DNA of 64,000 nt from Halopseudomonas maritima (GCF_021545785.1 NZ_CP079801.1:2826057-2890056), one strand, 5' to 3'. Shown: positions 8,020 to 45,105, counted from the stretch's first letter. Made by a program: numbers and translations. The notes: generated by a model from the sequence alone, not told the origin.

Positions 8020-8051
8020 ATTGGTAGCTGTGCAATAAAAACGTTATGGAA

Positions 8052-8071: not shown

Positions 8072-8083
8072 TGGTGTGTTGCC

Positions 8084-12656: not shown

Positions 12657-12684
12657 GCAAGCCTGGTGGAGCGAACAGGCTGTG

Positions 12685-13014: not shown

Positions 13015-13134
13015 GGCGGGTGTCCATGGTGTTGAGGCTATCAGGGGCGAGTAGTCTGGAGGCACTCGGCATCTGCCAGCGACTGGGGTTGGTGGTTTGC
13101 AGACAGGGCGGCGGGGAGCCGCCCTGCGTTGAAC

Positions 13135-13467
13135 TTAGTCCATGTCATCCAGGGTAAAGACGACATCGTCACGGGCGACGTCGATTTCCCATACGGTGTA
13201 GGTGTCGCCGTCCTCGTCCTTGGCGCGAATGTCAAAGATGGAGGACTTGGCACCGCGCAGGTTGACCCGCACTGTGTGGCCGTCAGGCAGAATGTCCTCA
13301 TCCAGCACGTCTTCTTCCCAGCTCTTGGACTTGGCGTGGCTCACATACAGGTAATAGATGTCGTAGCCGGTGTCGTTGGTCACCTCGACATAGCCATCGA
13401 AGCCGGCGGCTGCGGGGCCGCTAAACAGGCATAGGACGGCAAACAGCGCTAAGGCTTTTTTGATCAT
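13135..13467 (-). CDS. Small secreted protein, paralog B (unknown function)
   Basis: 110 aa from ATG 13467 (GGGAGAG SD); signal peptide MIKKALALFAVLCLFSGPAAA; same motif set as paralog A. Confidence 0.6.
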   Translation of the reverse strand: MIKKALALFAVLCLFSGPAAAGFDGYVEVTNDTGYDIYYLYVSHAKSKSWEEDVLDEDILPDGHTVRVNLRGAKSSIFDIRAKDEDGDTYTVWEIDVARDDVVFTLDDMD

Positions 13468-26707: not shown

Positions 26708-28030
26708 TCAATGCTTGACGGAGCTGAGTGCCTGCGTGTGGGTGTTGAGGTCTTCGCCCAGGCGATACTGGTTGTTGCCGCTGCGCTTGGCGGCATACAT
26801 CGCCAGGTCGGCGGCGTGGATCAGCTTGTCCATGGTCGGGGCATGTTCGGGGAAGAGTGCGACCCCGAGGCTGGCGCCAATGCGGTAATCGCGCCCTTGC
26901 AGCGTCATGGCAGGCGCCAGGCTGGTGAGCAGCTTTGCGCTGATGCGCTCGGCCTCCGCGCCGACCTCGGTGCTGCGTGACAGCCCTTCGAGCAGCACGA
27001 CAAACTCGTCACCGCCCAGACGCGCGACCATGTCGCTGCTACGCACAGCGCTGCGTAGGCGTTGCGCGACTTCCACCAGCACAGTGTCACCGGCGGCGTG
27101 GCCGTGCTGGTCGTTGATGAACTTGAACTTGTTGAGATCGATGAACACCAGCGCCAGGCGGCTGTTCTGGGCGCGGGCGCGTGTAATCGCTGCGCCGAGC
27201 TGCTGTTCGAGCATCAGGCGGTTGGGCAGGCCGGTCAGTGGGTCCTTGTGGGCGAGCTGGCGCAGCTCCTGGGCTGAGCGCTTTTCGTCGGTGATGTCGC
27301 GCACGACACCCATCATCCTGATGGCCTCGCCTTGCTCGTTCTTGATCACGTTGCCGGTTTCCCTGACCCAGTGCACGCTGCCGTCTGGCCAGACCACACG
27401 GTATTCCTCGTCGTGGTTCTCGCCGGTTTCGATGCAGCGGATCTCACCAGCGCGTACGCGCTCGCGATCATCAGGGTGCACGCTGTTGCAGAACAGGCTG
27501 TAGCTGGGTGTCACCGCCCCCGGCTGGTAGCCGAACATGCCGTAAATGGCTTCCGACCAATACAGCCGGTCGGTGTCGATCTCCCAGTCCCAGGTGCCGA
27601 TTTGGGCAAAATACTGGCTACGCTTGAAGCGCTCCATGGTCTCGGCGCTGGACTGCAGGTCGGTCTCGGGGTGCAGTAGCAGCACCGTCTGGCCGTCGAT
27701 GTCGGGCAGGCGAGTCAGATCCTGCTGGCGCAGGCCCTGTGATGTCGGCAACTGCAGCTCGATACGCTCCAGGGGGGCGGGCATGGCGGTCAGCGCTGGC
27801 AGCCAGCGGCTGATCGGCAAGTCTGCTCGCAGCTGTTGTGCAGACTGTTCGAGCAGACGACGCGCTGAAGGGTTGTGCCAGCGGATGCGGTGCCGGCCGT
27901 CGAGTATCAGCAGGCCGTTGGGTGACAGCTCCAGTAGTGCCTTGAACGTGGATGCCCGCCTGCGACTGCGCTGCAAGGCCAGGCCTGCGAGCAGTAAGAG
28001 CATGGATAGGGCAGTCAACAAAAGGGTCAT
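26708..28030 (-). CDS. Membrane-anchored PAS-GGDEF diguanylate cyclase
   Basis: PAS domain then GGDEF (RLGGDEFVVLL), the inhibitory-site RxxD present; start taken at ATG 28030 (TM helix LLLTALSMLLLLAGLAL). GTG 28141 is the alternative. Confidence 0.75.
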   Translation of the reverse strand: MTLLLTALSMLLLLAGLALQRSRRRASTFKALLELSPNGLLILDGRHRIRWHNPSARRLLEQSAQQLRADLPISRWLPALTAMPAPLERIELQLPTSQGLRQQDLTRLPDIDGQTVLLLHPETDLQSSAETMERFKRSQYFAQIGTWDWEIDTDRLYWSEAIYGMFGYQPGAVTPSYSLFCNSVHPDDRERVRAGEIRCIETGENHDEEYRVVWPDGSVHWVRETGNVIKNEQGEAIRMMGVVRDITDEKRSAQELRQLAHKDPLTGLPNRLMLEQQLGAAITRARAQNSRLALVFIDLNKFKFINDQHGHAAGDTVLVEVAQRLRSAVRSSDMVARLGGDEFVVLLEGLSRSTEVGAEAERISAKLLTSLAPAMTLQGRDYRIGASLGVALFPEHAPTMDKLIHAADLAMYAAKRSGNNQYRLGEDLNTHTQALSSVKH

Positions 28031-28172
28031 TGGGTTATCAGGCAGCGACGATTTGCCGCAGTATAACGCGGCGGCGAGGGCAGGCCATCCCGTAGTGGCA
28101 ATTTGCTTTGATGGCAGCTGAACCACCGGCGCTGGCAGCACTCACAGTTATACAGGTGCGCGGGAGCGAGAC

Positions 28173-28670
28173 ATGAAGGATATGGAGCAGGTACTGAACA
28201 CGATTGGCCGTACTCTGGTCGATGAGTTTTCCGATCTGACAGATATTGAGCAGGGCACCCGCGTTACGCTACGACTGCTGCTGGCGGCGCTACTGGGTGG
28301 CGTGCTGGGCCTGGAGCGCGAGCGGCAGGGCAAGGCTGCTGGTGTGCGTACGCACATGCTGGTATGCCTTGGCGCTGCGCTGTTTGTACTGGTGCCGGAT
28401 GTAGCCGGGGCGCTGGATGACGCCATGAGCCGGGTGATTCAGGGTGTGGTTGCCGGTGTTGGCTTTCTTGGCGCGGGCACTATCCTCAAGGGGGATGCGG
28501 CTAATCAGGTCAAGGGTCTGACCACCGCCGCCGGCATCTGGCTGACCGCTGCGATTGGCGTCACCATTGGCCTGGGGTACCAGGCAACCGGCCTGCTCTG
28601 CGCGGCGCTGGCGTTGATCATTTTGCACCTGGTGCCGATCTTGTTCCGCCCTCCGCAATCACCCTCCTGA
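28173..28670 (+). CDS. MgtC/SapB-family membrane protein
   Basis: 165 aa; MgtC N-terminal domain pattern (LLLAALLGGVLGLERE). Confidence 0.75.
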   Translation: MKDMEQVLNTIGRTLVDEFSDLTDIEQGTRVTLRLLLAALLGGVLGLERERQGKAAGVRTHMLVCLGAALFVLVPDVAGALDDAMSRVIQGVVAGVGFLGAGTILKGDAANQVKGLTTAAGIWLTAAIGVTIGLGYQATGLLCAALALIILHLVPILFRPPQSPS

Positions 28671-28871
28671 AAACGCCGAACTGTGCGCGGGTAGGCTTTT
28701 CTTTGTCTGACGCGCCCAGGGCTGCTGTAGTTAAATAGCCAGTGCACGGATCGCGCCTTCTCTCACGCCGCCTGGAAGCGCCCGCCTTTTTACTGATCCG
28801 TCCCTCTTGTACTGCCTGTCTGAGCCGGTCTTTGTGCCTCTTCCGGCGTCGCCTGAAAAGTGTCTTTAAAA

Positions 28872-28909
28872 TCATCACATGTAATTCATTGCATTGTTAC
28901 ATGTGATGA
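28872..28909. promoter_or_regulatory. Perfect 13-bp inverted repeat TCATCACATGTAA-N12-TTACATGTGATGA, 15 bp upstream of the yjfI-like start codon; putative operator of the PspA/flotillin/ATPase/PLD operon
   Basis: Seen directly, in the only strongly AT-rich patch of this region. Each arm carries an ACATGT palindrome. Confidence 0.6.
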
Positions 28910-28923
28910 ACTAGTCTCGCTGT

Positions 28924-29544
28924 ATGGAAAAGAAATCATCTGCCTACTATCAACGACTGTATCGTCAGCGCTTGCGTGAGCAGGGGCTGGTCAAGAAGGA
29001 AGTCTGGATATTGCCCGAGCATGCCTCTGCGCTCATGGCAGTAGAACGAAAGCTGCGCCAGCCGATGGCCCAGCTGGACGCAATGGAGAAGGAGATAGAC
29101 ATGAGCATGCAGCAGGTTTGGAGTGCCACGGCGTTGCATAAGGCCTTGAGCGGCACCGAGTTGTTTCAGGGCAAGCGCGCCAGTGTGGAACTGATTGACG
29201 GCAGCGAAGCCAGCTTGCACGTCACCATGCATGACTACGGTGATTTGCCGCTGTTTGTTGCCGTGTTTGGCGAGCAGATCATCGTTGAAGCCTTGTTGTG
29301 GCCGGTGAGTGATGTGCGTGATCTGGCTGAGTTTAATGAAGAGGTGCTGCGCACCCACAAGCTCTTTCCGCTGTCGAGCATCGGCCTGGAGCGTCTGGCC
29401 GACGGCACCGATTGCTACACGATGTTTGGTGCCTTGAGTTCTGGCTCGGCCCTGTCTGATGTGGTGTTCGAGATCGAGCTGCTGGCGGATAACGTGATCA
29501 AGGCGACCGAGGCCTACGAGAACCACCTGGTGATGCAAGCCTGA
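28924..29544 (+). CDS. YjfI-like (DUF2170) protein with an extra 55-aa basic N-terminal extension
   Basis: 206 aa; sits in the position of E. coli yjfI just before the yjfJ-type PspA; the C-terminal two-thirds resemble DUF2170. The N-terminal KK/RR-rich segment could bind nucleic acid. Confidence 0.45.
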   Translation: MEKKSSAYYQRLYRQRLREQGLVKKEVWILPEHASALMAVERKLRQPMAQLDAMEKEIDMSMQQVWSATALHKALSGTELFQGKRASVELIDGSEASLHVTMHDYGDLPLFVAVFGEQIIVEALLWPVSDVRDLAEFNEEVLRTHKLFPLSSIGLERLADGTDCYTMFGALSSGSALSDVVFEIELLADNVIKATEAYENHLVMQA

Positions 29545-29558
29545 CAAGGAGAAAGCTG

Positions 29559-30254
29559 ATGAACGTGTGGAGCAAATTGCTGACTGCAATGCGTGGTGGC
29601 GCCCATGAGGCAGGCGAGGCGCTGGTCGACAGCCAGGCGCTGCGTATCCTCGATCAGGAAATTCGTGATGCTGATGCCGAGTTGCACCGGTCCCGCGAAG
29701 CGCTGGCCAATATCATGGCCAAGCAGAAGCTGGCAGCGGACAAGTTGAGCAAGGTCTCGGCGCGCGTCGCTGAGTATGAGCAGTATGCGCTCAAGGCGCT
29801 GGAGTCTGGTGACGAGGCGCTGGCGCGTGAAGTTGCCGAGAAGATCGCAGGCCTGGAAAACGAGGCAAAGCTGGAGTCCGAGCAGGCTGAGGCCTATGCC
29901 ACCAGCGTGGCCAATCTGCGTCAGGCGGTGCAGCAGGCCGAAGGCAATATCAAGCGTCTGAAGCAGCAGGTTGATGTGGTCAAGGCTACCGAGAGCGTGC
30001 AGAAGGCGCAGCTTGCGGTGTCACAACGCTACGGCGGCTCTCAGGCCAAGATGCACACCGCGCTGGAATCGCTGGAGCGTATCAAGCAGAAGCAGGCCGA
30101 GCGTGGCGCCCGCATGGAAGCCGCGGCGGAGCTTGCGGTCGAGGGCAGCCCAGACCAGGCGCTTGAAGAAAAGCTGCGGGCGGCGGGCATTACGCCGGCC
30201 TCCGGCAGTGCGGACAGCGTGCTGGCACGCCTGAAGCAGCGCTCCGATAGCTAA
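29559..30254 (+). CDS. PspA/IM30-family protein (YjfJ-like, ESCRT-III-like), copy 2
   Basis: 231 aa coiled-coil; MNVWSKLLTAMRGGAHE...ALRILDQEIRD N-terminus matches copy 1 and the PspA family; 14 bp after the upstream gene. Confidence 0.85.
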   Translation: MNVWSKLLTAMRGGAHEAGEALVDSQALRILDQEIRDADAELHRSREALANIMAKQKLAADKLSKVSARVAEYEQYALKALESGDEALAREVAEKIAGLENEAKLESEQAEAYATSVANLRQAVQQAEGNIKRLKQQVDVVKATESVQKAQLAVSQRYGGSQAKMHTALESLERIKQKQAERGARMEAAAELAVEGSPDQALEEKLRAAGITPASGSADSVLARLKQRSDS

Positions 30255-30280: not shown

Positions 30281-30922
30281 ATGGAGCTTTTCTTTCAGAC
30301 GTCGCTGACGTTTCCGGTGGTGCTGTTCAGCTTCATGCTGTGCGTGGCCCTGTTGTATTGGCTGACGGTAGCGCTGGGCGCGGTGGATGTTGACGTGCTG
30401 GATGCCGGCGGTGACGGCGGCATGGACGACCCGTCCAATGCCGAGGGGCTGGGTGGCCTGCTGATGAAGCTGGGCCTGCATGAGGTCCCGCTCACGCTGG
30501 TACTGACGGTGCTGGTGTTCTTTGCCTGGCTGGCCAGTTACTTCGCGCAGCTGTTGCTGCTGGGCTGGCTGCCGTTAGGGCTATTGCGCTACCCCGTGGG
30601 CCTGGTGGTGATCGTGCTGGCGCTGGTGGTGGCTGTGCCTGTCACCCGGCTGGTGGTGGCGCCGTTGCGACCGCTGTTTCGCAAGGTATTGGGTTCGACC
30701 ACGCGCTCGTTGCTGGGGCAGGTGGTGGTGGTGCGCTCGCCGCTGGTCAGTGATCGACTGGGCGAGGCGGTGATGGAAGACGGCGGTGCGGGCCTGATCC
30801 TGCGTGTGCGCGCGGACCCGGCGCTGGGGTTCAAGCGTGGCGACCGCCTGGTCCTACTGGAATACCTGGAGGCGGAGCACGCCTATCGGGTGATCGGTGA
30901 AGACGAATTTAACGGGAAATAG
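30281..30922 (+). CDS. YqiJ/DUF1449-like inner-membrane protein (NfeD-like C-terminal OB-fold; partner of flotillin)
   Basis: 213 aa; N-terminal TM, acidic DAGGDGGMDDPS loop, 2-3 further TMs, C-terminal beta-rich ...GDRLVLLEY...YRV domain as in E. coli YqiJ; immediately before the flotillin gene. Confidence 0.6.
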   Translation: MELFFQTSLTFPVVLFSFMLCVALLYWLTVALGAVDVDVLDAGGDGGMDDPSNAEGLGGLLMKLGLHEVPLTLVLTVLVFFAWLASYFAQLLLLGWLPLGLLRYPVGLVVIVLALVVAVPVTRLVVAPLRPLFRKVLGSTTRSLLGQVVVVRSPLVSDRLGEAVMEDGGAGLILRVRADPALGFKRGDRLVLLEYLEAEHAYRVIGEDEFNGK

Positions 30923-30976
30923 TGCGAGACGGCACTATTCAGGTGCTGTGTTGCCCTGCAAAGGAGTTTGAGCGTA

Positions 30977-33025
30977 ATGAGTATGTCTATGGTAATGCCC
31001 TTCCTGATCGGGGTCGGTATTGTCTTTCTGCTGATCGTCGGTTTTTTTGTCCTGTTCAATGCGTTCTACATCAAGGTGCCCCAGGGCACGGCGTTGATTG
31101 TGAACGATATGAGCTCTACCCCCAAAGTGCACTTCACCGGGGCGCTGGTTTATCCAGTGATCTACAAGAAAGAGTTCATGAAAATCTCCCTGCTGACGCT
31201 CGAAGTGGATCGACGTGGCAAGGATGGGCTTATCTGTCAGGACAACCTGCGAGCTGATATCACCGTTGCCTTCTATCTGCGGGTAAACGAGACCCAGCAG
31301 GACGTGCTCAAGGTGGCCAAAGCAATTGGGGTGGACCGAGCCTCTGACCGCACCGCCGTCAATGAGCTGTTCAACGCCAAATTCTCCGAAGCGCTGAAGA
31401 CGGTCGGTAAAAAGTTTGAATTTGTCAGCCTGTTTGAAGAGCGTCAGAACTTCCGTGACCGCATCATCGAGGTCATCGGCAACGACCTGAACGGCTATGT
31501 GCTGGAAGACGTTGCAATCGATTACCTCGAGCAGACGCCGCGCACCTCGCTTGACCCCACCAACATTCTTGATTCCCAGGGTATTCGCAAGATTACCGAG
31601 CTGACTGCAACCCAGAACGTGATCACCAACGAGCTGGAGCGCAACGAAGAGCTGGCGATCATGAAGAAGAACGTCGAAACCCGCGAAGCGACGCTGGCAC
31701 TGGAACGCCAGCAGGCGGATGCCGAGGCGCGCCAGCAGCGTGAAATCGAAACCATTCGGGCGCGTGAGCAGGCCGAAACTGTCAAGGTGCAGGAAGAAGA
31801 GCGCCTCAAGGCTGAGCAGGCGCGTATCCAGACCCAGCAGGATCTGGATATTCGCAGCGAGAACCACCACCGCGAAGTCGAGGTGGCCCAGCAGAATCGC
31901 CAGCGCGCTGTGGTAATCGAGGTTGAGAAAGTAACCCGTGCGCGTGATCTGGAAGTGGTCGCTCGCGAGCGTGAAGTTGAACTGCAGCGCATCGAGAAAG
32001 AAAAGGCGCTGGAGGAAGAACGCAAGAATATTGCCGGCGTGATTCGCGAGCGTGTTGCGGTCGAGAAAACCGTGGCGCAGGAAGAGGAGCGCATCAAGGA
32101 AGTACGCGAAGTCGCCGAGGCCGATCGCCAGAAGCAGGTTCAGGTGCTCAATGCACAGGCCGAGGCAGAGCAGGAGCTGGTGCGGCAGGTCAAGCAGGCC
32201 GAGGCCGATGAAACCAAGTCGCGCCACAAGGCTGTCGAGATGAATAACCTGGCCCAGGCCGAGCTGGAAGCGGCTGCCAAGCAGTCCGAGGCGGCCAAGA
32301 AGCGCGCCGAAGGTACGCAGGCAGAAGCCGCTGCCAATGGCCTGGCTGCGGCCCGTGTGCGCGAAGTGACCGCCGCCGCCAAAGAGAAGGAAGGTCTGGC
32401 CGAGGCGCGCATCCAGTCCGAGCAGTTGATTGCTCAGGCCAAGGGCGAGCAGGAGCAGGGGCTGGCGCAAGCGCGGGTGATCGAGGCGCAGGCGGCTGCG
32501 AAGGAGAAAGAAGGTCTGGCAGAAGCCAAGGTGCTGGAAGAAAAGCTCACCGCACAGGCGCGCGGCGAAGAGCAGCTTGGTGTGGCCAAGGCCCGCGCGG
32601 CCAAGGATCAGGGGCTGGTCGAGGCCGAAGTATTGCTGGAGCGCCTCAACGCCGAAGCCGAAGGTCTGGGCAAAAAGTTCTCCGCACTCGATGCGCTCAG
32701 TGCCGACGCCCGTCAGCACGAAGAGTTCCGCATGCAGCTTGAGAAGAGCTTCGAAGAAGCGATGGCCGCCATCGCCGCCAATAAGGACATTGCGCGGGAT
32801 CAGGCAGAGGTACTGTCGACAGCACTCGGCAAAGCCAATATCGAGATCGTGGGCGGGGAGGGTGACTTCTTCAACTCCTTTGCCAAGTCGCTGTCGGTGG
32901 GCAAGGCCATCGAAGGTGTGGTCGGCAAGAGCCCGGTCGTGCAGGACGTGCTGCAACGGCTGCTGGCCGGTCGTGGCAACGGTGATATGCCGAGCGTCGC
33001 CAACAAGGGCGACGCAGAGGCCTGA
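30977..33025 (+). CDS. Flotillin-family SPFH/band-7 protein (YqiK-like) with an extended repetitive coiled-coil tail
   Basis: About 682 aa from ATG 30977 (AAGGAG SD 10 nt upstream); N-terminal TM then SPFH domain then ~400 aa E/A/K/R-rich coiled coil including a 40-aa internal tandem repeat (AAAKEKEGLAEA...). Confidence 0.85.
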   Translation: MSMSMVMPFLIGVGIVFLLIVGFFVLFNAFYIKVPQGTALIVNDMSSTPKVHFTGALVYPVIYKKEFMKISLLTLEVDRRGKDGLICQDNLRADITVAFYLRVNETQQDVLKVAKAIGVDRASDRTAVNELFNAKFSEALKTVGKKFEFVSLFEERQNFRDRIIEVIGNDLNGYVLEDVAIDYLEQTPRTSLDPTNILDSQGIRKITELTATQNVITNELERNEELAIMKKNVETREATLALERQQADAEARQQREIETIRAREQAETVKVQEEERLKAEQARIQTQQDLDIRSENHHREVEVAQQNRQRAVVIEVEKVTRARDLEVVAREREVELQRIEKEKALEEERKNIAGVIRERVAVEKTVAQEEERIKEVREVAEADRQKQVQVLNAQAEAEQELVRQVKQAEADETKSRHKAVEMNNLAQAELEAAAKQSEAAKKRAEGTQAEAAANGLAAARVREVTAAAKEKEGLAEARIQSEQLIAQAKGEQEQGLAQARVIEAQAAAKEKEGLAEAKVLEEKLTAQARGEEQLGVAKARAAKDQGLVEAEVLLERLNAEAEGLGKKFSALDALSADARQHEEFRMQLEKSFEEAMAAIAANKDIARDQAEVLSTALGKANIEIVGGEGDFFNSFAKSLSVGKAIEGVVGKSPVVQDVLQRLLAGRGNGDMPSVANKGDAEA

Positions 33026-33086: not shown

Positions 33087-36000
33087 ATGACGAGGATGTC
33101 AGAGTCAGCAGGCGAAGATCAGGCACAGGGCCTGGTTGATCGGGCTGTAGCTGAAGGCGGTGCCTACGAGGTGTTGCACAAGCGGCTGCTGGAACAGGGG
33201 CGGCAACTTGCCGGCCTGGCCGAAGCACTGAATGCCCAGCGGCAGCAGGAGTTTGGCAGTCAGCCGATTGAAGTGATTGGTCGCACGCGCGTGCGCACTG
33301 AGAACAACTGCATCGCACGCGATATCGCCCAGGTCGGCGGGCTGATGCTGTTCGGCTACAACGTGTTTATCGGGCTCAAGCAGGAAACCCGGGTACAGGA
33401 CGTTTTCTCCCTTTATCGGCTGGTTCAGCAGGATGGCGAGTACGACGCTCAGGCTGTCGATCTGGCCGGCAGCTTTCTGGCCGAGGCCAGCTTCGTCAAC
33501 GACTTTGACGAGCTCTATCGCTACTACAAGAACACGCGGCTGCTGCAACTGAGCGTGCGTGACGGCAAGTTGCTGGCGGCCTTCCAGATTGGCGAGCGGA
33601 TCAGCGATGTGCGCGTCTTCCGCTGGTCGGTGTCGGCTGATGGCGGTCAGGTGCGCTACATCGATAACCGCGGTGAGCGTGACATTCAACTGCCGCGCCC
33701 CTTTGATTTCGAGTGGACAGCCGCCGGCCGCGACGCTGTGGTGCAGGGCCGCCACTCGCATTTCAATATTCTCGATACCCTGTTTGTCGACACCCTGGGT
33801 GGTGACCTGACCGTCAAGGTGGAGAACAACACCGAGGACGGCCTGGGTATCTACCGCGAGCCGGTTGCCGACAAGACCCAGTCGCTGAATGATGTGCAGA
33901 TCGAGTACGCACACCTGGGCACCCTGATTCTGCTGAAGGTGCTGCCGTACCGTGAGGAGCAGTGGCGTTATCTGGTATTCAATACCCTGACGCGCAAGGT
34001 ACAGCGCATCGATGCGATTGGGCAGGCCTGCGTGCAGCTGCCGGAAGATCACGGCATCATCTTCCCGGGCGGCTGCTATCTGCAAAGTGGCGAGTACCGC
34101 ACCTTTGATCAGCCCATGGACGGCATGCGCTTCAAGCGCTCTGTCCGCTCGCCCAACGGCGAGGATGTGCAGTACGTTTTCTACCACCCGGAGCAGGGCC
34201 GTTCGGCGCTGTTTACCTACAACCTGATCAGTCGCGAATTGCAGAGCCCGCAATTTGGCCACGGGCATGCGCGCCTGGCTGACGGGCGCATGGTGATCTT
34301 TTCTGCCGAAGGGGATGAGCCTACGCGCATCCATCCGATGCAAATCTGGCAGACGCCGTTCTATACCGATGAGCACGCGGCGACCCAGCCGCAACGCGGC
34401 GGCTTCTTTGGGCGCATAGGCAACGCCGAGCTGGTGCGCGGCGTATCTGACTTGCTCAATCTGGCGCGTGAGATCGACAGCAATGAGGTGTCGCTGCAGC
34501 GCTATGCGCTGCTGTGCCAGGAAACCCAGCGCCTGTTTGATGCCTATTACTGGCTCAGTGATGAGGCTTGTGGCGGCGTTGCCCCCTTGCTGCGGCAGAT
34601 ATCCTCCAGTGCGGCCATGGTGCTGGACGAGTTCGAGAAGGTCGAGAGTATTCGGCAGCAGTCAGCGCGGGCCATGACGGAGGCGCAGACACGTCAGCAG
34701 GAGCTGATGTCGGGCCTGTCGGTGCAGGAGTTCTCTGATGTTCAGGCCTACGTTGATGCGCTGGGGGCGCTCAATGCCCAGCGCGGCAAGCTGCTCACCA
34801 TTCGCGAGTATCGCTACATCAATGTTGCGCAGATCGACGAGATGGAAGCGCAGCTGCTTACCGAGCATGAGCGGTTGGCAGCAGAGGTGTCCAGTTTTCT
34901 GGCCGGCGAGCAGGCGCTGGCGCCTTATCACCAGCAGCTGCAGGCGCTCGATACCAGTGCTGAACAGGCTGAAACAGTCACTCAACTGGCGGAACCGCTG
35001 GAGCAATTGATCGCCATGGCGGCGGGCTTGGATATGCTGTCCGAGCTGATAGCGTCGCTGCGTATTGACGACGCTACCCAGCGCACCCGCGTGGTGGAGG
35101 CCATCTCTGAGCTGTACGCCAAGCTCAACCAGTCCAAGGCGCGAGCCGAGTTGCGGCGCAAGTCGCTTGGTTCGGCCGAGCAGGTGGCGCAATTTGGCGC
35201 CCAGTTCAAGTTGTTCAGCCAGGCAATTACCAATGCGCTGGCGCTGGCGCAGGACCCTGAGAGCTGTGATGAGCAGCTGTCGCGCCTGCTGGTTCAGCTG
35301 GAAGAGCTGGAGAGCCAGTTCGGTGGCCATGAGGCGTTTCTGAGTGACATCCTCGATAAACGAGAAGAACTACTTGAGACCTTCGAGGCCCATCGCCAGC
35401 GTCTGCTGGATGAGCGTCAGCGCCGTGCCCAGGGTCTGCAGGATGCCGCAGTACGCATCATCGACAGCTTGCCACGGCGCACCGGTCGGTTGACCGAGCC
35501 GGATCTGCTGAACGCCTTTTTTGCCACCGACCCGCTGATTCTCAAGCTGCGTGAGCTGATCGAGCGGCTGCGCGACCTGCACGACAACGTCAAGGCTGAT
35601 GATATTGAGGCGCGCCTCAAGGGTGCGCGGGATCAGGCGGTGCGTGGCCTGCGCGACAAGCGCGAGCTGTTCGAAGGTGGCGGAAATGTTATTCGGCTGG
35701 GGCCGCGTCACCGCTTCAGTGTCAATGCCCAGGAACTCGATCTGACCCTGCTGCCCCGTGGTGACTCGCTGAGCCTGCACCTGACGGGCACCGACTATTT
35801 TGAGCCCTTGGTCAATGACGAGCTGGACGCCCTGCGCGACTACTGGGATGGCGGCCTGCTGTCCGAGTCCCCGCAGCTGTATCGCGCCGAATACCTAGCC
35901 GGTGAGGTTATTGCGCTCGCTCAGCGTGCTGAAGCCGGCCTGAGCATGGAGCTGCTGCATCAGCAACTGCTGGAGCCTGAACACTTGGTACGCACGCTGC

Positions 36001-38312
36001 GCGAGATCGCGACGCCGCGCTATCGCGAGGGGTACGAGAAGGGGATTCACGATCACGACGCGGCGCTGATTCTGGCGCAGCTGCTGCCGCTGCTCGCCAG
36101 CGCCGGCCTGCTGCGTTTTGACCCGCAGGCGCGGGCGCTGGCAATGCTGTTCTGGGCGCAGAGTGCCGATACGCCGGCGGTGTCCGGCTGGGCTGAACGG
36201 GCCGCGGCCGTGCTGCAGATTCAGCAGTTGTTCGGGCGCGCCGACGCGCTGCTGCAATTACAGGGCGAGGTGCAGTCCAGCCTTGCTGAGTGGCTGCAAG
36301 GGCGCCTGATCGAGGCTGACAGCAGAACGCTGGCAGCCGCCGCCGCCTGGTTGATCGAGTGGCTGGCTGAGCCGCAGCCGATCTGGCAGGTCAGCCGGTA
36401 TGCCCAGCAGCTTTATGTTGGCCTGCAGGACTATCTGGCACCACTGGGTCTGTGGGACAGCTGCATGCAGTCGGTTGAGCGCCTGGCTGGCGCGCCGGGG
36501 CAGCAGTGGCAGTTTTTGCAGCACTGGTTTAGCGGCTTGTGTGAGCAGGACGATTTTGCCCCGCTGCGTCGTTACGTACCTGAAGCGGTTGCCTTATGTC
36601 TGCTGCAGCCGCAGGTTCAGGTGACCGTTGTCGAGGTTGACCTGCGGTTTGCGGTGTCTGGTCTGCTGGGACAGCACCCACGCGTGCGGGACGGAGCGCT
36701 GACGCTGGCGGTGGATGAGTTCTTTACTCGCCTACGTCAGCACCGGCAGGATTTTCAGCCGGGTCTGGAGCGCTATCAACAGTTGCGTCAGCAACTGCTT
36801 GATGAGCAGCGCAAGACGTTGCGGCTGGCTGAGTTCAAGCCGCGCCCGCTCACCTCCTTTGTGCGCAACCGCCTGATCAACGACGTGTATCTGGGCGTTA
36901 TCGGTGACAACCTCGCCAAGCAGATGGGTACTGTGGGTGAGGGGCGGCGCTCGGACCTGAACGGTCTGCTGATGCTGATTTCCCCGCCCGGTTACGGCAA
37001 AACCACGCTGATGGAGTATGTGGCGCACGCGCTGGGTCTGGTGTTCATGAAGATCAATGGGCCGGCGCTGGGACATGAGGTGCGCTCGCTGGATCCGGCG
37101 CAGGCGCCCGATGCGACGGCCGCGCAGGAGCTGGTCAAGCTCAATCTGGCGCTGGAGATGGGCAATAACGTGATGCTGTATGTCGATGACATTCAGCACA
37201 CCCACCCGGAGTTTCTGCAGAAATTCATCTCGCTGTGCGATGGCACCCGCCGTATTGAAGGCGTCTGGAAGGGGCGCACACGTACCTATGACATGCGCGG
37301 TCGCAAGTTTGCCGTGGTTATGGCTGGTAACCCCTACACCGAGTCCGGTGAGGTGTTCCGCATTCCGGACATGCTGGCCAACCGTGCCGACATCTATAAC
37401 CTCGGTGACACCCTGGCGGGTATGAATGATGTGTTCGCGCTCAGCTATATCGAGAACAGTCTGACCTCCAACTCCGTGCTCGCCCCCCTGGCTGGCCGCG
37501 ATCTGAACGACTTGTACCGCCTGGTAGCCAAGGCTGAAGGCAAGCCGTTCTCTGCCAATGAGTTGAGTTACGACTACAGCGCTGCGGAGATCAACGACAT
37601 GGTTGCCACCCTGCAGCGCATGATGCAGCTGCGTGATGTGGTGCTGCGGGTCAACCAGCAGTACATCGCCAGCGCCGCGCAGGATGATGGCTATCGCACC
37701 GAGCCGCCGTTCAAGTTGCAGGGCAGTTATCGCAACATGAACAAGCTGGCGGAGAAGGTGTCGGCGGTGATGAACGAGCAGGAACTGCAGCAACTGGTCG
37801 ACGATCACTACCAGGGCGAGTCGCAGCTGCTGACCACCGGGGCAGAGGAGAACCTGCTCAAGCTGGCCGAGTTGCGCGGCACGCTGAATGCAGAACGTGC
37901 CGAGCGCTGGCGACAGATCAAGGCAGATTTTCTGCGCAATCGCGCGATGGGTGGTGACGACGCGGATGTAGGCAAGCGCGTGGTCGGTCAGCTGAGCGAT
38001 CTGGTGCAGAGCGTGCGCGCCTTGGCCGGCTCTGGGCAGTCGGAGGTGGCTGTGCCCTGGGATGAGCTGCTCGCTGCGTTGCAGTCGCTGCACAAGCTGA
38101 GCCCCAAGGTGCGTGTCGTGATGCCGCCCCAGCAGCTGATTCAGCAGATGCTCGACGGGCTGTCGGACAGCATGCGCGCAACAGTGACCCCACTGGCTGA
38201 TGTGATGGACCGTCAGGTGGTGGCCGGGCGGGAGGCGCAGACCCAGTTGCTCGACATTGTGCGGCAACTGAAGGTCGTGACCCTGGATGACCAGGATGAC
38301 AGCAAACCATGA
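33087..38312 (+). CDS. Giant 1741-aa protein: beta-rich N-terminal region, ~750-aa helical region, C-terminal MoxR/AAA_5-type (dynein-related) AAA+ ATPase domain
   Basis: Walker A LISPPGYGKTTL (nt ~36985-37020); Walker B VMLYVDDIQHT (~37165-37200); sensor-1 AVVMAGNPYTESG and arginine RIPDMLANRADIYNL (~37310-37400). Stop overlaps the start of the PLD gene (ATGA). Confidence 0.8.
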   Translation: MTRMSESAGEDQAQGLVDRAVAEGGAYEVLHKRLLEQGRQLAGLAEALNAQRQQEFGSQPIEVIGRTRVRTENNCIARDIAQVGGLMLFGYNVFIGLKQETRVQDVFSLYRLVQQDGEYDAQAVDLAGSFLAEASFVNDFDELYRYYKNTRLLQLSVRDGKLLAAFQIGERISDVRVFRWSVSADGGQVRYIDNRGERDIQLPRPFDFEWTAAGRDAVVQGRHSHFNILDTLFVDTLGGDLTVKVENNTEDGLGIYREPVADKTQSLNDVQIEYAHLGTLILLKVLPYREEQWRYLVFNTLTRKVQRIDAIGQACVQLPEDHGIIFPGGCYLQSGEYRTFDQPMDGMRFKRSVRSPNGEDVQYVFYHPEQGRSALFTYNLISRELQSPQFGHGHARLADGRMVIFSAEGDEPTRIHPMQIWQTPFYTDEHAATQPQRGGFFGRIGNAELVRGVSDLLNLAREIDSNEVSLQRYALLCQETQRLFDAYYWLSDEACGGVAPLLRQISSSAAMVLDEFEKVESIRQQSARAMTEAQTRQQELMSGLSVQEFSDVQAYVDALGALNAQRGKLLTIREYRYINVAQIDEMEAQLLTEHERLAAEVSSFLAGEQALAPYHQQLQALDTSAEQAETVTQLAEPLEQLIAMAAGLDMLSELIASLRIDDATQRTRVVEAISELYAKLNQSKARAELRRKSLGSAEQVAQFGAQFKLFSQAITNALALAQDPESCDEQLSRLLVQLEELESQFGGHEAFLSDILDKREELLETFEAHRQRLLDERQRRAQGLQDAAVRIIDSLPRRTGRLTEPDLLNAFFATDPLILKLRELIERLRDLHDNVKADDIEARLKGARDQAVRGLRDKRELFEGGGNVIRLGPRHRFSVNAQELDLTLLPRGDSLSLHLTGTDYFEPLVNDELDALRDYWDGGLLSESPQLYRAEYLAGEVIALAQRAEAGLSMELLHQQLLEPEHLVRTLREIATPRYREGYEKGIHDHDAALILAQLLPLLASAGLLRFDPQARALAMLFWAQSADTPAVSGWAERAAAVLQIQQLFGRADALLQLQGEVQSSLAEWLQGRLIEADSRTLAAAAAWLIEWLAEPQPIWQVSRYAQQLYVGLQDYLAPLGLWDSCMQSVERLAGAPGQQWQFLQHWFSGLCEQDDFAPLRRYVPEAVALCLLQPQVQVTVVEVDLRFAVSGLLGQHPRVRDGALTLAVDEFFTRLRQHRQDFQPGLERYQQLRQQLLDEQRKTLRLAEFKPRPLTSFVRNRLINDVYLGVIGDNLAKQMGTVGEGRRSDLNGLLMLISPPGYGKTTLMEYVAHALGLVFMKINGPALGHEVRSLDPAQAPDATAAQELVKLNLALEMGNNVMLYVDDIQHTHPEFLQKFISLCDGTRRIEGVWKGRTRTYDMRGRKFAVVMAGNPYTESGEVFRIPDMLANRADIYNLGDTLAGMNDVFALSYIENSLTSNSVLAPLAGRDLNDLYRLVAKAEGKPFSANELSYDYSAAEINDMVATLQRMMQLRDVVLRVNQQYIASAAQDDGYRTEPPFKLQGSYRNMNKLAEKVSAVMNEQELQQLVDDHYQGESQLLTTGAEENLLKLAELRGTLNAERAERWRQIKADFLRNRAMGGDDADVGKRVVGQLSDLVQSVRALAGSGQSEVAVPWDELLAALQSLHKLSPKVRVVMPPQQLIQQMLDGLSDSMRATVTPLADVMDRQVVAGREAQTQLLDIVRQLKVVTLDDQDDSKP

Positions 38313-38995
38313 TGGACTTTCAGCAACTTGACCAGGTGTTGCGCGACAGCGTGGCCGATTTGCGTATGAGCAATGAGGAGCGAGTGGAGCTGCGAGAGCT
38401 GGGCAGTGGTCTCGAACCTGACCGCATCCGTTTTTTGCGCAATCGCGCCTTTGCACTGGTACGAGAGCTTGCAGCCGAGCCGGAAAACGTGATGTCGGCA
38501 CTGAAATGGCTTGAACAGGTGGTGAAGACGTTGGACACCTCGCAGGCAAACGAGGTGCAGGTGGCCAGTGCCCATTTCAGCCCGGGCGAGAGCTGCCGGC
38601 GGCGGATTCTGGACTTGTGCAACCAGGTGCGTGACAGCCTGAGTATCTGCGTCTTCACCATCTCCGATGATCGCCTCAGCCGCGCAGTGCTGGCCTGCCA
38701 TCAACGCGGGGTCAAGGTGCGAATCATCAGCGACCATGAGAAGCAGCACGACATGGGCAGCGATATCGCCATGCTGCGTGATGAAGGTATTCCGCTGCGG
38801 GTCGATCCCGGCCCCTACCACATGCACCACAAGTTCGCCCTGTTTGATGATCGAATCCTGCTCAACGGCAGTTTCAACTGGACGCGCAGCGCCAGTGATT
38901 ACAACCAGGAGAACCTGCTGGTGATCGACCATGTGCCGCTGGTCGCCGATTACGTACGTGAGTTCGAAGGCCTCTGGCAGCGTTTCGCGGTGTGA
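38309..38995 (+). CDS. Single-HKD phospholipase-D-superfamily protein (Nuc/Zucchini-like endonuclease fold)
   Basis: 228 aa; one HxK(x)4D(x)6GSxN motif (HMHHKFALFDDRILLNGSFNWTRSA, nt 38821-38895); ~90-aa helical N-terminal extension; translationally coupled to the giant ATPase. Confidence 0.8.
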   Translation: MMDFQQLDQVLRDSVADLRMSNEERVELRELGSGLEPDRIRFLRNRAFALVRELAAEPENVMSALKWLEQVVKTLDTSQANEVQVASAHFSPGESCRRRILDLCNQVRDSLSICVFTISDDRLSRAVLACHQRGVKVRIISDHEKQHDMGSDIAMLRDEGIPLRVDPGPYHMHHKFALFDDRILLNGSFNWTRSASDYNQENLLVIDHVPLVADYVREFEGLWQRFAV

Positions 38996-39059: not shown

Positions 39060-39599
39060 ATGGCATTGCAGGCAACTCCCTACAAGGTTCAGCTGAACAT
39101 TACCGATACCGATCTGGGTGTGTACGAGACGGTACGCATGACCGTTGCCCGTCATCCGTCGGAGACCGAGGAACGTCTGGCGGTGCGACTGCTGGCCTAT
39201 GCGCTGTGGTATCAGGAGCGCCTAGCTTTTGGCCGTGGGCTGTCGGATGTCGACGAGCCTGCGTTGTGGCTCAAGACCCTGGATGATCGCGTCGAGCACT
39301 GGATTGAGGTTGGCCAGCCGGATGCCGAGCGCATGACCTGGTGCTCGCGTCGCGCCCAGAAAGTGTCCGTGCTGGTGTACGGCAGTACCCGGGTCTGGCA
39401 GAACAAGCAGCTGTCAGCGGTCGCAACCCTGGGCAATCTGAATGTGGCGGCGCTTGCTGAAGAGCCGTTGCAGGCGCTCGCGACTGATCTGCCGCGCAGC
39501 ATCGATTGGGGCGTCATGATCAGCGACGGCGTGCTGTACGTGAGTGATGGCGATCAGCAGCACGAGCTGCCGCTGGAGTGGTTGCAGGGTCAGCGCTAA
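39060..39599 (+). CDS. yaeQ: YaeQ-family protein (PD-(D/E)xK-like fold)
   Basis: 179 aa from ATG 39060 (MALQATPYKVQLNITDTDLGVYETVRMTVARHPSETEERL...), the canonical YaeQ N-terminus; stop overlaps the recJ start (TAATG). Confidence 0.75.
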   Translation: MALQATPYKVQLNITDTDLGVYETVRMTVARHPSETEERLAVRLLAYALWYQERLAFGRGLSDVDEPALWLKTLDDRVEHWIEVGQPDAERMTWCSRRAQKVSVLVYGSTRVWQNKQLSAVATLGNLNVAALAEEPLQALATDLPRSIDWGVMISDGVLYVSDGDQQHELPLEWLQGQR

Positions 39600-41796: not shown

Positions 41797-42819
41797 TGTG
41801 ATCTTTCAGTAGGTTGTTCATTCGGGACATACCCGGCAGATTGGAGGTGCGAAACAACAAGCCCCCGGAGTCCCGAATGAACAATCACAAAAATGCCCGA
41901 TTAACTGTCCATGGTCGAGCCCTTTTGATCACTCGTATCCTTGAAGATGGTCTGCGCCCCTGCGAAGCTGCACAAGCGATGGGGGTCAGCCTGCGTACCG
42001 CTTACAAGTGGCTCGCGCGCTACAAAAACGAAGGCCACGACGGGCTGCACAATCGTTCTTCCCGACCTCGCTATTGCCCGCATGAAACGCCACCTGATCA
42101 GCAACAGCAGATCATTGAACAGCGCCGCGAGCGCCGAGTTTATAGGCATATCAGCGCCCAGGTAGGCGTGAGCGTCGCCACTATCGGCCGAGTTTTACGA
42201 CGAGCTGGCCTGAACCGGCTGAGTGCGCTTGAGCCTGCGCGGCCGACCAATCGATATGAGCACGACAACCCTGGCGACCTGTTGCACTTGGATATCAAGA
42301 AGCTGGCACGCTTCCGGCGCCCCGGTCACCGTGTCACAGGTGAGTTCAAAGGGAAGTCGCACGGCGCAGGCTGGGAGTACATCCACATAGCCATTGACGA
42401 CCATAGCCGTGTTGCGTGGGCAACGACTCATCCTGACGAGACGGCTGCCAGTGCATGGCGTGCGCTGACTAGCGCCATTCGCTACTACCGGTCACTCGGG
42501 ATACGTATTCAGCGCTTGCTGACGGACAACGGTAGCTGCTATCGCTCCGCGCTGTTTGCACGCGCTTGCCGACGACTGGGGCTCAAGCATGGCCGCACGC
42601 AGCCCTATACGCCACGAACCAACGGCAAGGCCGAGCGCTGGATACAAACGGCATTACGGGAGTGGGCTTATGCTCGTTCTTACGACGACTCTGAGCAAAG
42701 AGCAGATCATCTAAATGCATGGCTACATCAGTACAACTGGCATCGCCCACACTCAGCTATCGGTGATCTGCCACCTATCAGCAGGCTGCCGAAGATGAAC
42801 AACCTACTGGCTTTACACA
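41797..42819 (+). mobile_element. IS481-family insertion sequence (1023 bp) with 6-bp CCTAGG target-site duplication
   Basis: Imperfect terminal IRs TGTGATCTTTCAGTAGGTTGTTCAT / ATGAACAACCTACTGGCTTTACACA resemble the IS481 ends (TGTGAAGATTCAATAGGTTGT...). Direct repeats CCTAGG at 41791-41796 and 42820-42825. Insertion at a CTAG site; the transposase TAG stop is supplied by the target. Confidence 0.85.
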
Positions 42820-42824
42820 CCTAG
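41877..42824 (+). CDS. IS481-family DDE transposase (integrase core domain)
   Basis: 315 aa; N-terminal HTH (MNNHKNARLTVHGRALLITRILEDG...) and rve-type DDE catalytic core (HLDIKKL...DNGSCY...E). Confidence 0.9.
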   Translation: MNNHKNARLTVHGRALLITRILEDGLRPCEAAQAMGVSLRTAYKWLARYKNEGHDGLHNRSSRPRYCPHETPPDQQQQIIEQRRERRVYRHISAQVGVSVATIGRVLRRAGLNRLSALEPARPTNRYEHDNPGDLLHLDIKKLARFRRPGHRVTGEFKGKSHGAGWEYIHIAIDDHSRVAWATTHPDETAASAWRALTSAIRYYRSLGIRIQRLLTDNGSCYRSALFARACRRLGLKHGRTQPYTPRTNGKAERWIQTALREWAYARSYDDSEQRADHLNAWLHQYNWHRPHSAIGDLPPISRLPKMNNLLALHT

Positions 42825-42834
42825 GGGCCAGTTA

Positions 42835-45105
42835 GTGGCGGATCTGAAACAGAAGTTGCTCAATATGCAGCGCCAGCTTGGGCTCAACCCTGATGAGGTA
42901 CGCCAGCGGTTGCGCCTGTTGCTGATGGGGGACGCGGGGTTTGACTGCCTGGCCGCGCATCTGCCGGCGCTGGACCGCTTGCACGCCGACTGCATCGAAG
43001 GGTTGCTGGCGCATCTCAACAGTATTGAAGGGAGCGCCGCGCTGCTCGCCTCGTCTGGTCGCACAGAGCAGCTGCAGGGGCTGCAGAAGGGCTACTTTCA
43101 GCAGCTGCTGCGTGGCCCTTACGACATGCAGTACGTACGTTTGCGGCTGCTGGTGGGGTTAGCCCATCAGCGCCTGGGCGTGGAGCTCAAGTGGTATCTG
43201 GCGGCCTTCCATTTCTATCTGGATTTCATGCACAAGGCGATCAACCGTCACTGGCGCAGCGAGCCCAAGCTGGCCGAGCAGTTGTACGGCTGCCTGCTCA
43301 AGTCCGCCTTTTTCGACATTTCTCTGACCGCCGATACCTATATTGCTGCTGACAAGCAGGCGTTGCAGGCCAGCGAAGACCGCTATGCACGCGCGGTGCG
43401 TGGCGCCAACGACGGGCTTTGGGAGTGGCATGTCGAAGACGACCGCCTGTATCTGTCTGACCGTTGGCTAGCCATGCTTGGGCTGGATGCCGCTCGCGCT
43501 CCGCGTAGCTTGAGCGACTGGGCGGCGCTGATCCCCGAGGCGCAGCGGGGCGACTTTCTGGCAGCACTGCAGGCCCACCTGGATGGACGGCAGGCGTTTT
43601 TGCATGTCGAGTGCCAGCTGCGCGATAGCTGGGGGCGCCTGATCTGGGTGATGATTCGCGCTGTTGCTTCCACCGACCGTCAGGGAGAGCGCCTGCTCGC
43701 GGGTTCGCTCACGGATATCAGTCAGCGCAAGCAAACCGAGCAGGCGTTGGCGCATCAGGCGTTGCATGATGCGCTGACCGGCCTGCCTAACCGGCAGCAG
43801 GTTGGTGCGTTGCTCAGTCAGGCGCTGCAGCGTCAGGGTAAGCCTGGAGCCCGGCATGCTGCGGTGCTGTTTATCGATCTGGATCGTTTCAAGCTGATCA
43901 ACGAAAGCCTGGGTCATCAGACCGGCGATCAGGTGTTGATTCAGGTTGCCAAGCGCATCGAGCGTTGTCTGCGCCCCGGTGATCACCTGGGGCGCTTTGG
44001 CGGGGACGAGTTTGTCGTTTTGCTGGATGACCTGGCCCAGCCGCATGATGCCGAACTGGTCGGTCAGCGCATCATGCACGCCTTGCAGTATCCAATCGTT
44101 GCCGGATCGCGCCGGCTTGCGGTCAGCGTCAGCATTGGCGTGGCACCCATGAAAGACCACGGCGATGAACAGGACGCTTTGCGTGAGGCTGACCTGGCGC
44201 TGTACCGCGCCAAGGCCTATGGCAAGGGGCAGCTGGCGCTGTACAACGACAGTCTGCAGGAAGAGGCGACTCAGCGGCTCAATCTGGAAAATGCCCTCAG
44301 TGAAGCGCTGAGCCGTGACCAGTTCGAGCTGTACTATCAGCCCATCGTCCAGGTGTCGGCCGGCCGCACGCTGGTGGTTGGGGTAGAGGCGCTGCTGCGC
44401 TGGTGGCAGGGCGAGCGGATGGTGCCGCCGGATGAGTTTATTCCGGTGCTGGAGGAGTCTGGTGAGATCGTCGCGGTGGGCGAGTGGGTGCTGCGTCAGG
44501 CCTGCACCCAGGTTCGTCAGTGGCACTCGCAGGGTCTGGCCGGGTTGCGATGTTCGGTTAATCTCTCCAGCCGCCAGCTGCAAGAGCCGGGTTTTGCCGA
44601 CCGGGTGGCGCAGATTCTCAAGGAAACCGGCTTGCCACCCGCGAGTCTGGTGCTGGAAATAACCGAAAGCCTGCTGATGCGTGACGGGCCAGACACGCTG
44701 GCGACATTGCGCGAACTGGAAAGCATGGGTGTACGCATTGCGCTGGATGATTTTGGCACCGGCTTCTCCTCGCTGGGTTACCTGCATCGCTATCCGCTGC
44801 ACATCATCAAGGTCGACAAGAGCTTTATCACCAAGGCTCCCAACGACGAGCGGCTCAAAGCCATCAGTCGAGCCATCATCGGGCTGGGCAAGGGGCTGGA
44901 CATGGACGTGATTGCCGAAGGTATCGAAACGCCCGAGCAGATGGATTTTCTGCATAACGAGGGCTGCCAGTTCGTGCAGGGCTACTGGTTCAGCCGGCCG
45001 CAGTCGGCGGCTGTCATCCACCCTGTGCTGCAGCGGTTGTCGGTGATTGACTCACCGGAGACCTCGCTGCTGGAGCTGAGTCCGGCAACTGCTATAGTGC
45101 AGTGA
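42835..45105 (+). CDS. Globin-coupled sensor - PAS - GGDEF - EAL multidomain c-di-GMP turnover protein
   Basis: 756 aa; N-terminal sensor-globin fold with proximal-His motif (LAHQRLGVELKWYLAAF); PAS; GGDEF (RFGGDEFVVLL) with RxxD; EAL (EALLRW ... DDFGTGFSSL ... EGIE). Start (GTG 42835, or ATG 42865) lies 10 bp after the IS481 target duplication. Confidence 0.85.
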   Translation: MADLKQKLLNMQRQLGLNPDEVRQRLRLLLMGDAGFDCLAAHLPALDRLHADCIEGLLAHLNSIEGSAALLASSGRTEQLQGLQKGYFQQLLRGPYDMQYVRLRLLVGLAHQRLGVELKWYLAAFHFYLDFMHKAINRHWRSEPKLAEQLYGCLLKSAFFDISLTADTYIAADKQALQASEDRYARAVRGANDGLWEWHVEDDRLYLSDRWLAMLGLDAARAPRSLSDWAALIPEAQRGDFLAALQAHLDGRQAFLHVECQLRDSWGRLIWVMIRAVASTDRQGERLLAGSLTDISQRKQTEQALAHQALHDALTGLPNRQQVGALLSQALQRQGKPGARHAAVLFIDLDRFKLINESLGHQTGDQVLIQVAKRIERCLRPGDHLGRFGGDEFVVLLDDLAQPHDAELVGQRIMHALQYPIVAGSRRLAVSVSIGVAPMKDHGDEQDALREADLALYRAKAYGKGQLALYNDSLQEEATQRLNLENALSEALSRDQFELYYQPIVQVSAGRTLVVGVEALLRWWQGERMVPPDEFIPVLEESGEIVAVGEWVLRQACTQVRQWHSQGLAGLRCSVNLSSRQLQEPGFADRVAQILKETGLPPASLVLEITESLLMRDGPDTLATLRELESMGVRIALDDFGTGFSSLGYLHRYPLHIIKVDKSFITKAPNDERLKAISRAIIGLGKGLDMDVIAEGIETPEQMDFLHNEGCQFVQGYWFSRPQSAAVIHPVLQRLSVIDSPETSLLELSPATAIVQ

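Follow-up and report, generated by a model that had tools for sequence, protein, structure and literature searches.

Probable BacF-like phosphodiesterase of the PLD6 clade at the end of a predicted bac operon in Halopseudomonas maritima

The stretch of DNA analysed here, called the window, covers 64,000 nt of the genome of Halopseudomonas maritima (NZ_CP079801.1:2826057-2890056, assembly GCF_021545785.1). An open reading frame (ORF) at 38309-38995, directly behind the gene for a giant AAA+ ATPase, encodes a small protein of the phospholipase D (PLD) superfamily, and is very probably orthologous to bacF, with which the bacABCDEF operon ends; the product is predicted to be a catalytically competent, cytoplasmic phosphodiesterase of the PLD6 clade with a single HKD motif. 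Both gene and operon have already been described, and no new system is involved. What carries interest is the chemistry of the enzyme, lipid hydrolase or nuclease, together with its unusually close kinship to animal PLD6 (43% identity). The features of the gene are as follows.

38309-38995, + strand: bacF-like gene, encoding an N-terminal four-helix domain and a single-HKD PLD domain (ORF translation, Pfam and AlphaFold2 model).
38309-38312, + strand: ATGA stop/start overlap of the ATPase and PLD genes (alternatively TGATG at 38310-38314).
38309-38563, + strand: N-terminal helical domain, residues 1-85, with helices at 4-16, 22-32, 37-54 and 58-80; specific to the BacF family.
38564-38992, + strand: PLD catalytic domain, residues 86-228, PLD6/Zucchini-like (PLDc_2, phmmer against the PDB, and Foldseek).
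38825-38878, + strand: catalytic motif H173-x-K175-x4-D180-x6-G187-S188-x-N190 (translation and family alignment).

An earlier reading of the sequence, referred to below as the original prediction, had proposed an ORF with one HxKx4Dx6GSxN motif in 228 aa, and this is what is present. The motif reads H173-H-K175-FALF-D180-DRILLN-G187-S188-F-N190, and the Pfam PLDc_2 match (residues 102-223, one domain, E=4.8e-28, 98 bits against a gathering cut-off of 27) is far beyond chance. The stop codon of the ATPase ORF is the TGA at 38310-38312, so a PLD start at the ATG at 38309 (228 aa) produces the ATGA overlap that had been claimed. The NCBI model of the identical H. maritima protein begins at the second ATG, at 38312, giving 227 aa and a 1-nt TGATG overlap. 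Whichever ATG is used, the arrangement implies, as far as can be judged from the nucleotide sequence, that translation of the PLD gene is coupled to that of the ATPase gene. The same ATGA geometry occurs in Halopseudomonas (L001 and L002) and in six Lysobacter-type loci. In the 90%-identity cluster to which the protein encoded by 38309-38992 belongs there are also many YaeQ-family proteins of 179 aa, apparently an artefact of clustering for which a gene call fusing PLD and YaeQ might be the bridge.

Five further genes lie upstream of the PLD gene.

28924-29544, + strand: bacA, DUF2170/CesT-Tir-like chaperone-regulator (NCBIfam NF050185 'biofilm formation regulator BacA', 351 bits, cut-off 300; DUF2170 E=1.2e-53).
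29559-30254, + strand: bacB-like gene for a PspA/IM30 protein (PF04012, PspA_IM30, E=6.4e-54).
30281-30922, + strand: bacC-like gene for a multi-transmembrane protein of the YqiJ/YuaF (NfeD-like) type, with three hydrophobic segments and a weak YqiJ_N match (E=0.062).
30968-33025, + strand: bacD-like gene for a protein with an N-terminal transmembrane region (residues 1-39) and a flotillin/SPFH-like region; ortholog of PA3729/PA14_16180/PaFlo3.
33087-38312, + strand: bacE-like gene for a giant ATPase of 1741 aa, with DUF3686 (beta-propeller region), a coiled coil, DUF7902 and an AAA+ domain (residues ~1290-1420).

Membership of the bac operon is seen in the DUF2170 and PspA pair at the 5' end and in the DUF3686/AAA+ ATPase followed by the PLD gene, all on a common strand. 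From bacA to the ATPase gene the intergenic gaps are 14, 26, 45 and 61 nt, the ATPase and PLD genes overlap, and no terminator signal rises above background, features that hint at one transcript; in scans of 28.4-41.6 kb for sigma-70 promoters and terminators, site counts did not exceed those of shuffled sequence. With PspA, DUF2170/BacA, a protein with three transmembrane segments and a flotillin-like protein with a transmembrane region encoded upstream, the PLD gene does stand beside membrane-organising genes, as had been proposed. The bacC-like gene keeps its position in all loci compared, and in tblastn the bacC- and bacD-like genes are 58-86% identical to their Pseudomonas counterparts at matching operon positions, the bacD-like protein reaching 84-86%. 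This last protein gave no match to the Pfam Band_7/SPFH models, its SPFH label coming from PMC13086221 and PMC11237479, and none to PDB sequences. The giant ATPase matches DUF3686 (E=3.8e-200), DUF7902 and AAA_5/AAA (residues 1295-1418) in Pfam, and is 100% identical to an H. maritima protein named 'DNA repair ATPase'; its C-terminal part is 98% identical to that of H. pachastrellae. The cluster holding the P. aeruginosa ATPase ortholog (P0298) contains 3222 sequences. No mention of DUF3686 was found in the literature, nor of the PDB entries 9LKX and 9LKY.

In P. aeruginosa PA14, RT-PCR joins the six genes bacA to bacF (PA14_16140-16200) into one operon, mapped with bacF as its last gene, and a bacA mutant shows increases of 8.9-fold in BacE protein and 6.1-fold in BacF (Wallart et al. 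2024, PMC10948618). The primers used there for the final junction were mapped on the P. paraeruginosa locus (L020), where they fall, respectively, within the ATPase gene at its 3' end and within the PLD gene at its 5' end, and therefore BacE is the giant ATPase and BacF the PLD protein. The same class of operon, a CesT/Tir-PspA pair with band-7/flotillin and AAA+ genes and an optional PLD hydrolase, was described by Ravi et al. 2024 (PMC11237479), and PA3729 is the SPFH protein PaFlo3 (PMC13086221). The operon affects biofilm formation and virulence of P. aeruginosa. No biochemical activity ascribed to BacF was found in the literature; the 'PA3727' of bioRxiv 10.1101/2021.09.08.459554 is a typographical error for PA3427, and does not refer to bacF.

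The window protein is an ortholog of P. aeruginosa BacF (PA14_16200/PA3727) with ~65% identity, it follows the orthologous giant ATPase, and all five upstream genes agree in kind and order. The loci differ in that the ATPase and PLD genes are separated by ~1-16 nt in the P. aeruginosa group but overlap (ATGA or TGATG) in the window, and in that many other Pseudomonas species carry a rhomboid gene between the two, which the window lacks. Nor was a sigma-54 consensus found upstream of bacA in the window: no TGGCAC-N5-TTGCW with 2 or fewer mismatches occurs at 28671-28923, and window-wide counts equal those expected by chance.

The AlphaFold2 model of the PLD protein, built from 113 sequences, has a mean pLDDT of 94.7 and consists of four helices (residues 4-80) followed by the alpha/beta PLD domain. 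The N-terminal domain has conserved positions at D17, E24, R44, F48, W67 and L68. Searches for hydrophobic or transmembrane segments and for a signal peptide in the protein found none, and it is predicted to be cytoplasmic. Placement in the Nuc/Zucchini branch of single-HKD enzymes, already suggested by the original prediction, was confirmed and made more precise, the nearest solved relative being mammalian PLD6. In phmmer searches of the PDB, PLD6 gave the best matches, over residues 91-226 (9lkx, E=2e-31; 4ggj, 9e-30), followed by fly Zucchini and Nuc (~1e-14) and NucT (2e-10). Foldseek with the model reproduced this ranking, with PLD6 (4ggk, E=2.4e-14, TM-score 0.79), Nuc (1byr, TM-score 0.85) and NucT (6ehi, TM-score 0.78). 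Identity to human PLD6 over the catalytic domain is 58/136 aa (43%), and 39-47% for the bacterial family as a whole. Scores with the equivalog models for NucT/Nuc (NCBIfam PRK13912) were below threshold, at 27-47 bits against cut-offs of 211-351.

BacF and PLD6/MitoPLD/Zucchini (4ggj, 4ggk, 9lkx) are thus alike in their single HKD motif, common fold, small size and level of identity, and PLD6 acts, and BacF is predicted to act, at the cytosolic face of a membrane. They differ in that PLD6 has an N-terminal transmembrane anchor and BacF a soluble four-helix domain, in that the BacF-family-invariant residues T117, D120, K145, D148 and D152 are not retained in PLD6, and in that the piRNA pathway is absent from bacteria. 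Nuc (pKM101) and NucT (Helicobacter pylori) have the common fold and an identical catalytic motif, but they are only 25-27% identical to BacF and are secreted or periplasmic proteins with signal peptides, whereas BacF appears cytoplasmic and carries the additional N-terminal domain. By analogy with the crystal dimers of Nuc, NucT and Zucchini (PMC5714352), BacF would act as a homodimer with a single active site composed of the HKD motifs of both chains, and catalysis would proceed through a phospho-histidine intermediate. In four PLD relatives (P0231, P0254, P0262 and P0263), 43-51% identical in the catalytic domain, the four-helix domain is replaced by an amphipathic Trp/Arg/Leu-rich helix and ~150 aa of charged coiled coil, a possible membrane-tethering variant.

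If the PLD domain had turned into a non-catalytic scaffold, loss of HKD residues might be expected among its relatives, and the original prediction had named this as a check. An exhaustive HMMER search returned 13,133 relatives; after clustering at 50% identity, over 100 cluster representatives have the full architecture of N-terminal and PLD domains. In 105 such representatives, H173, K175, D180, G187, S188 and N190 are each at least 99% conserved, and the motif is intact in 129/130 fetched loci and in 69/69 operon-linked copies, so there is no pattern of loss. Conservation extends to T117, D120, D142, K145, D148, G150, S151 and D152. A pseudo-enzyme resembling the DUF1669 domain of FAM83 was considered in view of precomputed Pfam PF07894 (FAM83/SACK1) matches on many homologs and the presence of FAM83 structures among the Foldseek matches. 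These matches are far weaker than those to PLD6 and Nuc, and this identity was rejected because the catalytic residues are kept throughout the family; we give it almost no weight. BacF is apparently an active phosphodiesterase of the PLD6 clade, to judge from its conserved residues.

The association of the PLD gene with the ATPase was followed in two sets of loci: a genome set of 80, fetched by the ATPase C-terminus and compared by tblastn, and a metagenome set of 80 more, fetched by a profile of the PLD family. Throughout the genome set, the YqiJ-like, flotillin-like and ATPase genes are found wherever the contig reaches far enough upstream. The PLD gene comes directly after the ATPase in 23 of these loci (Halopseudomonas, the P. 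aeruginosa group and Lysobacter). A rhomboid-protease gene, with overlapping stop and start codons, stands between them in 25, and a gene for an unknown 262-aa protein plus TelA in two. Among loci with adequate coverage, 50/60 of those with BacA-PspA have PLD, against 0/11 of those lacking BacA-PspA (Fisher p=1.4e-7, uncorrected for phylogeny, the 11 forming a single Stenotrophomonas/Xanthomonas/Luteimonas group). In the metagenome set, 11 of 22 family members with at least 6 kb of sequence on both sides are linked to flotillin or ATPase genes, and linkage falls with identity, from 5/5 at 50% or more to 5/10 at 44.5-50% and 1/7 below that; gene order varies in some of the linked loci. One distant case (L188) has a DUF3686 ATPase gene ~1.1 kb upstream of the PLD gene, with one opposite-strand gene in between. 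The ATPase-PLD linkage is far from random and spans phyla, and the PLD gene can also stand alone. The functional tie to the giant ATPase that the original prediction drew from the overlap has held up well, as overlap or close adjacency is kept across orders and in P. aeruginosa a single transcript spans the junction (PMC10948618).

The slot after the ATPase is occupied by a rhomboid gene in 32 loci and by telA in 16. An example of the former (L008, 11386-11946) encodes a 186-aa rhomboid-family intramembrane protease (PF01694, E=2.9e-19) between ATPase and PLD, and a rhomboid gene also follows the ATPase in three PLD-less loci (L033, L064 and L078). The telA gene of L066 lies at 11464-13355 (PF05816, E=7.8e-69); TelA likewise follows the ATPase in L045, L048, L053-L055, L060, L063, L065, L067-L070 and L072-L074. 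TelA-bearing loci of the Stenotrophomonas, Xanthomonas and Luteimonas type are without BacA-PspA and PLD and often have the unknown 262-aa protein before TelA, and two Lysobacter loci have both TelA and PLD. The flotillin-ATPase core therefore seems to accept alternative accessory modules. In L188, whose contig has Planctomycete-type neighbours (PSCyt1/PSD1/DUF1501), the PLD gene (8001-8704) takes the form of two ORFs in overlapping frames, one for the N-domain (117 aa) and one for PLDc_2 (131 aa), probably the result of a frameshift or sequencing error.

Downstream of the PLD gene in the window are genes for YaeQ (Pfam E=8.7e-63), after a gap of 65 nt, and RecJ. The longest recJ ORF begins (GTG at 39578) inside yaeQ, whose last 22 nt (39578-39599) it shares, and the true start may be further downstream. 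These neighbours had been taken as an argument for a DNA-targeting role, and PLD, YaeQ, RecJ and the ATPase might be read as a DNA repair or processing module, given that the four genes share one strand, that only 65 nt separate PLD from yaeQ and that the ATPase bears the database name 'DNA repair ATPase'. Comparison of the loci points elsewhere. YaeQ and RecJ follow the locus only in pseudomonads, at 0.1-6 kb and with variable, unrelated insertions; they adjoin the ATPase where PLD is absent (L027, L035 and L036), and where loci from Lysobacter, from metagenomes or of Planctomycete-like type retain the ATPase-PLD link, both are missing. This distribution therefore reflects lineage synteny and not a functional module, and the argument from YaeQ and RecJ falls away. 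The ATPase owes its 'DNA repair' name to a label inherited from Pfam/COG, its similarity to solved structures being at the level of Walker A alone (RuvB/VCP, E~0.006), and the PA14 operon was mapped as terminating at bacF (PMC10948618). A repair module is largely refuted by synteny, and we consider it very unlikely.

With an active phosphodiesterase predicted, the question becomes that of its substrate. The reading that we tentatively favour, while giving it somewhat less than an even chance, is that BacF is a membrane-proximal phospholipid hydrolase, acting on cardiolipin or phosphatidylglycerol together with the PspA-flotillin-AAA+ machinery. BacF would be made in fixed proportion to BacE by translational coupling, and its four-helix domain, to go by the operon context, would dock it onto an assembly of PspA, flotillin and BacE on the inner side of the cytoplasmic membrane. 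At that site it might hydrolyse the head groups of anionic phospholipids, converting cardiolipin or phosphatidylglycerol to phosphatidic acid, and so could shift charge and curvature locally, at the places where damaged membrane is sealed or remodelled by the PspA polymer with its AAA+ partner. PspA is an ESCRT-III-like protein. BacF would then play a bacterial counterpart of the role proposed for MitoPLD on the mitochondrial outer membrane; MitoPLD was reported (Choi et al. 2006) to turn cardiolipin into phosphatidic acid and to promote mitochondrial fusion. Whether PLD6 is a lipid enzyme or a nuclease has been argued since 2006-2012.

Several observations are in keeping with a lipid substrate. 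The conserved partners and the other occupants of the slot are all membrane-related (PspA, flotillin-like, YqiJ-like, rhomboid and TelA), PLD is found only in the loci with BacA-PspA, some relatives have the amphipathic helix and coiled coil in place of the four-helix domain, and the nearest characterised homolog, PLD6, is membrane-tethered. The PLD domain is mildly acidic (family median pI 6.1), and the family-conserved acidic residues D120, D148 and D152 sit in loops on the active-site face, which fits poorly with a non-specific binder of nucleic acid; net charge or pI as an indicator of substrate was set aside as not diagnostic, the PLD6 core being near neutral too. If BacF does hydrolyse cardiolipin or phosphatidylglycerol, it would provide a lipid-remodelling arm for bacterial membrane repair and support for a lipid role of MitoPLD.

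Other observations weigh against a lipid enzyme working at the Bac machinery. Lipid activity is a matter of dispute for PLD6 itself, and comparison of the fold of the N-terminal domain was uninformative. The placement of BacF at the membrane or on BacE is drawn from operon context. Ten PspA-containing loci lack PLD, including that of H. pertucinogena, in the same genus, so PLD is an accessory component. Among the more distant family members, about one in two is a solitary gene, with no conserved neighbour (neighbour clustering of the 61 metagenome loci without a linked ATPase or flotillin gene gave no recurrent partner), and the enzyme is therefore not strictly dependent on the Bac machinery. 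The nearest PLD-domain relatives with additional domains carry modules of nucleic-acid type (HHH_3, lamin-tail and a weak CCCH zinc finger), HHH_3 or lamin-tail domains being found in the nearest tandem-PLD relatives. PA3727 is not among the phage-induced genes given in PMC12041424, and every characterised small single-HKD enzyme of the branch (Nuc, NucT, BfiI and Zucchini) is a nuclease in vitro (PMC5714352).

Those in vitro activities and the HHH_3 and lamin-tail fusions speak at the same time for a different enzyme, a single-strand-specific RNA/DNA endonuclease like Zucchini or NucT that is checked or positioned by the Bac membrane complex. Such a nuclease might degrade membrane-proximal RNA in envelope stress, or, paired with BacE as nuclease and NTPase, attack the nucleic acid of incoming phage. 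Some orthologs are named 'nuclease' by NCBI, PADLOC gives weak matches to the PLD regions of MkoC and DrmC, PA3728-PA3732 are induced in phage-infected P. aeruginosa (PMC12041424), and pairs of a PLD nuclease with an NTPase are known in defence, e.g., Mokosh and Azaca (bioRxiv 10.1101/2025.07.10.664194). However, a non-specific, constitutive nuclease in the cytoplasm would be toxic, the acidic character of the domain and its active-site face is unfavourable, and the conserved operon partners are all membrane proteins, none of them nucleic-acid-binding. On this evidence a nuclease is the chief rival and less likely than the phospholipid hydrolase, and the rest of the probability belongs to other or unknown substrates. 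If BacF is a nuclease, it raises the question of why such an enzyme is wired to a membrane-stress machine.

A role in defence, also raised by the original prediction, would be a low-probability sub-case of the nuclease, and it gained no positive support. DISARM DrmC, Dpd DpdK, Mokosh MkoC and Azaca resemble the locus in that an HKD-type PLD domain is encoded beside an NTPase. The matches of BacF to such proteins are weak and partial, the best in PADLOC being to MkoC (E=3e-8 over 90 aa), with the PLD region of DrmC also weak and the NCBIfam DrmC model scoring 31.7 bits against a cut-off of 133. BacE is neither a helicase nor a known defence NTPase, and PADLOC returned no match for it. The GC content is uniform across the region (0.56-0.65), and the bac locus, a conserved membrane-stress operon, shows core-genome synteny across genera, unlike the variable islands of defence genes. 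Viral contigs and a viral structure library yielded only distant PLD-only relatives (at most 32% and at most 21% identity, respectively), none with the N-terminal domain. Phage induction of the operon is compatible with ordinary envelope stress. It is conceivable, if improbable, that Bac (PspA, flotillin and AAA+) senses membrane damage and, on phage or envelope injury, licenses a BacF nuclease to destroy membrane-proximal nucleic acid; this would be a previously unrecognised logic of defence or abortive infection, with the piRNA nuclease's closest relative among bacterial proteins as its effector. BacF itself is a soluble, easily expressed bacterial relative of PLD6, encoded in an operon with PspA, flotillin and a giant AAA+ ATPase.

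Upstream of bacA, at 28872-28909, the arms TCATCACATGTAA / TTACATGTGATGA form a perfect inverted repeat of 13 nt; they are separated by 12 nt, and the repeat ends 14 nt before the bacA start. H. pachastrellae and H. oceani have near-identical inverted repeats at this position, and P. paraeruginosa has a related one (TTACATGTGAG / CTTACATGTAA); no inverted repeat was found upstream of bacA in L008. The repeat may represent an operator or a 5′ untranslated region hairpin of the bac operon.

The operon is preceded by genes for a PAS-GGDEF diguanylate cyclase (26708-28141, - strand) and an MgtC-family protein (28173-28670, + strand). Directly downstream of recJ is an IS481-family transposase gene (LZ_Tnp_IS481, rve; 41814-42824), followed by a gene for a protoglobin-PAS-GGDEF-EAL protein (42835-45105). 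With a GGDEF gene upstream and a GGDEF-EAL gene downstream, the biofilm-associated bac operon is thus flanked on both sides by cyclic di-GMP genes.

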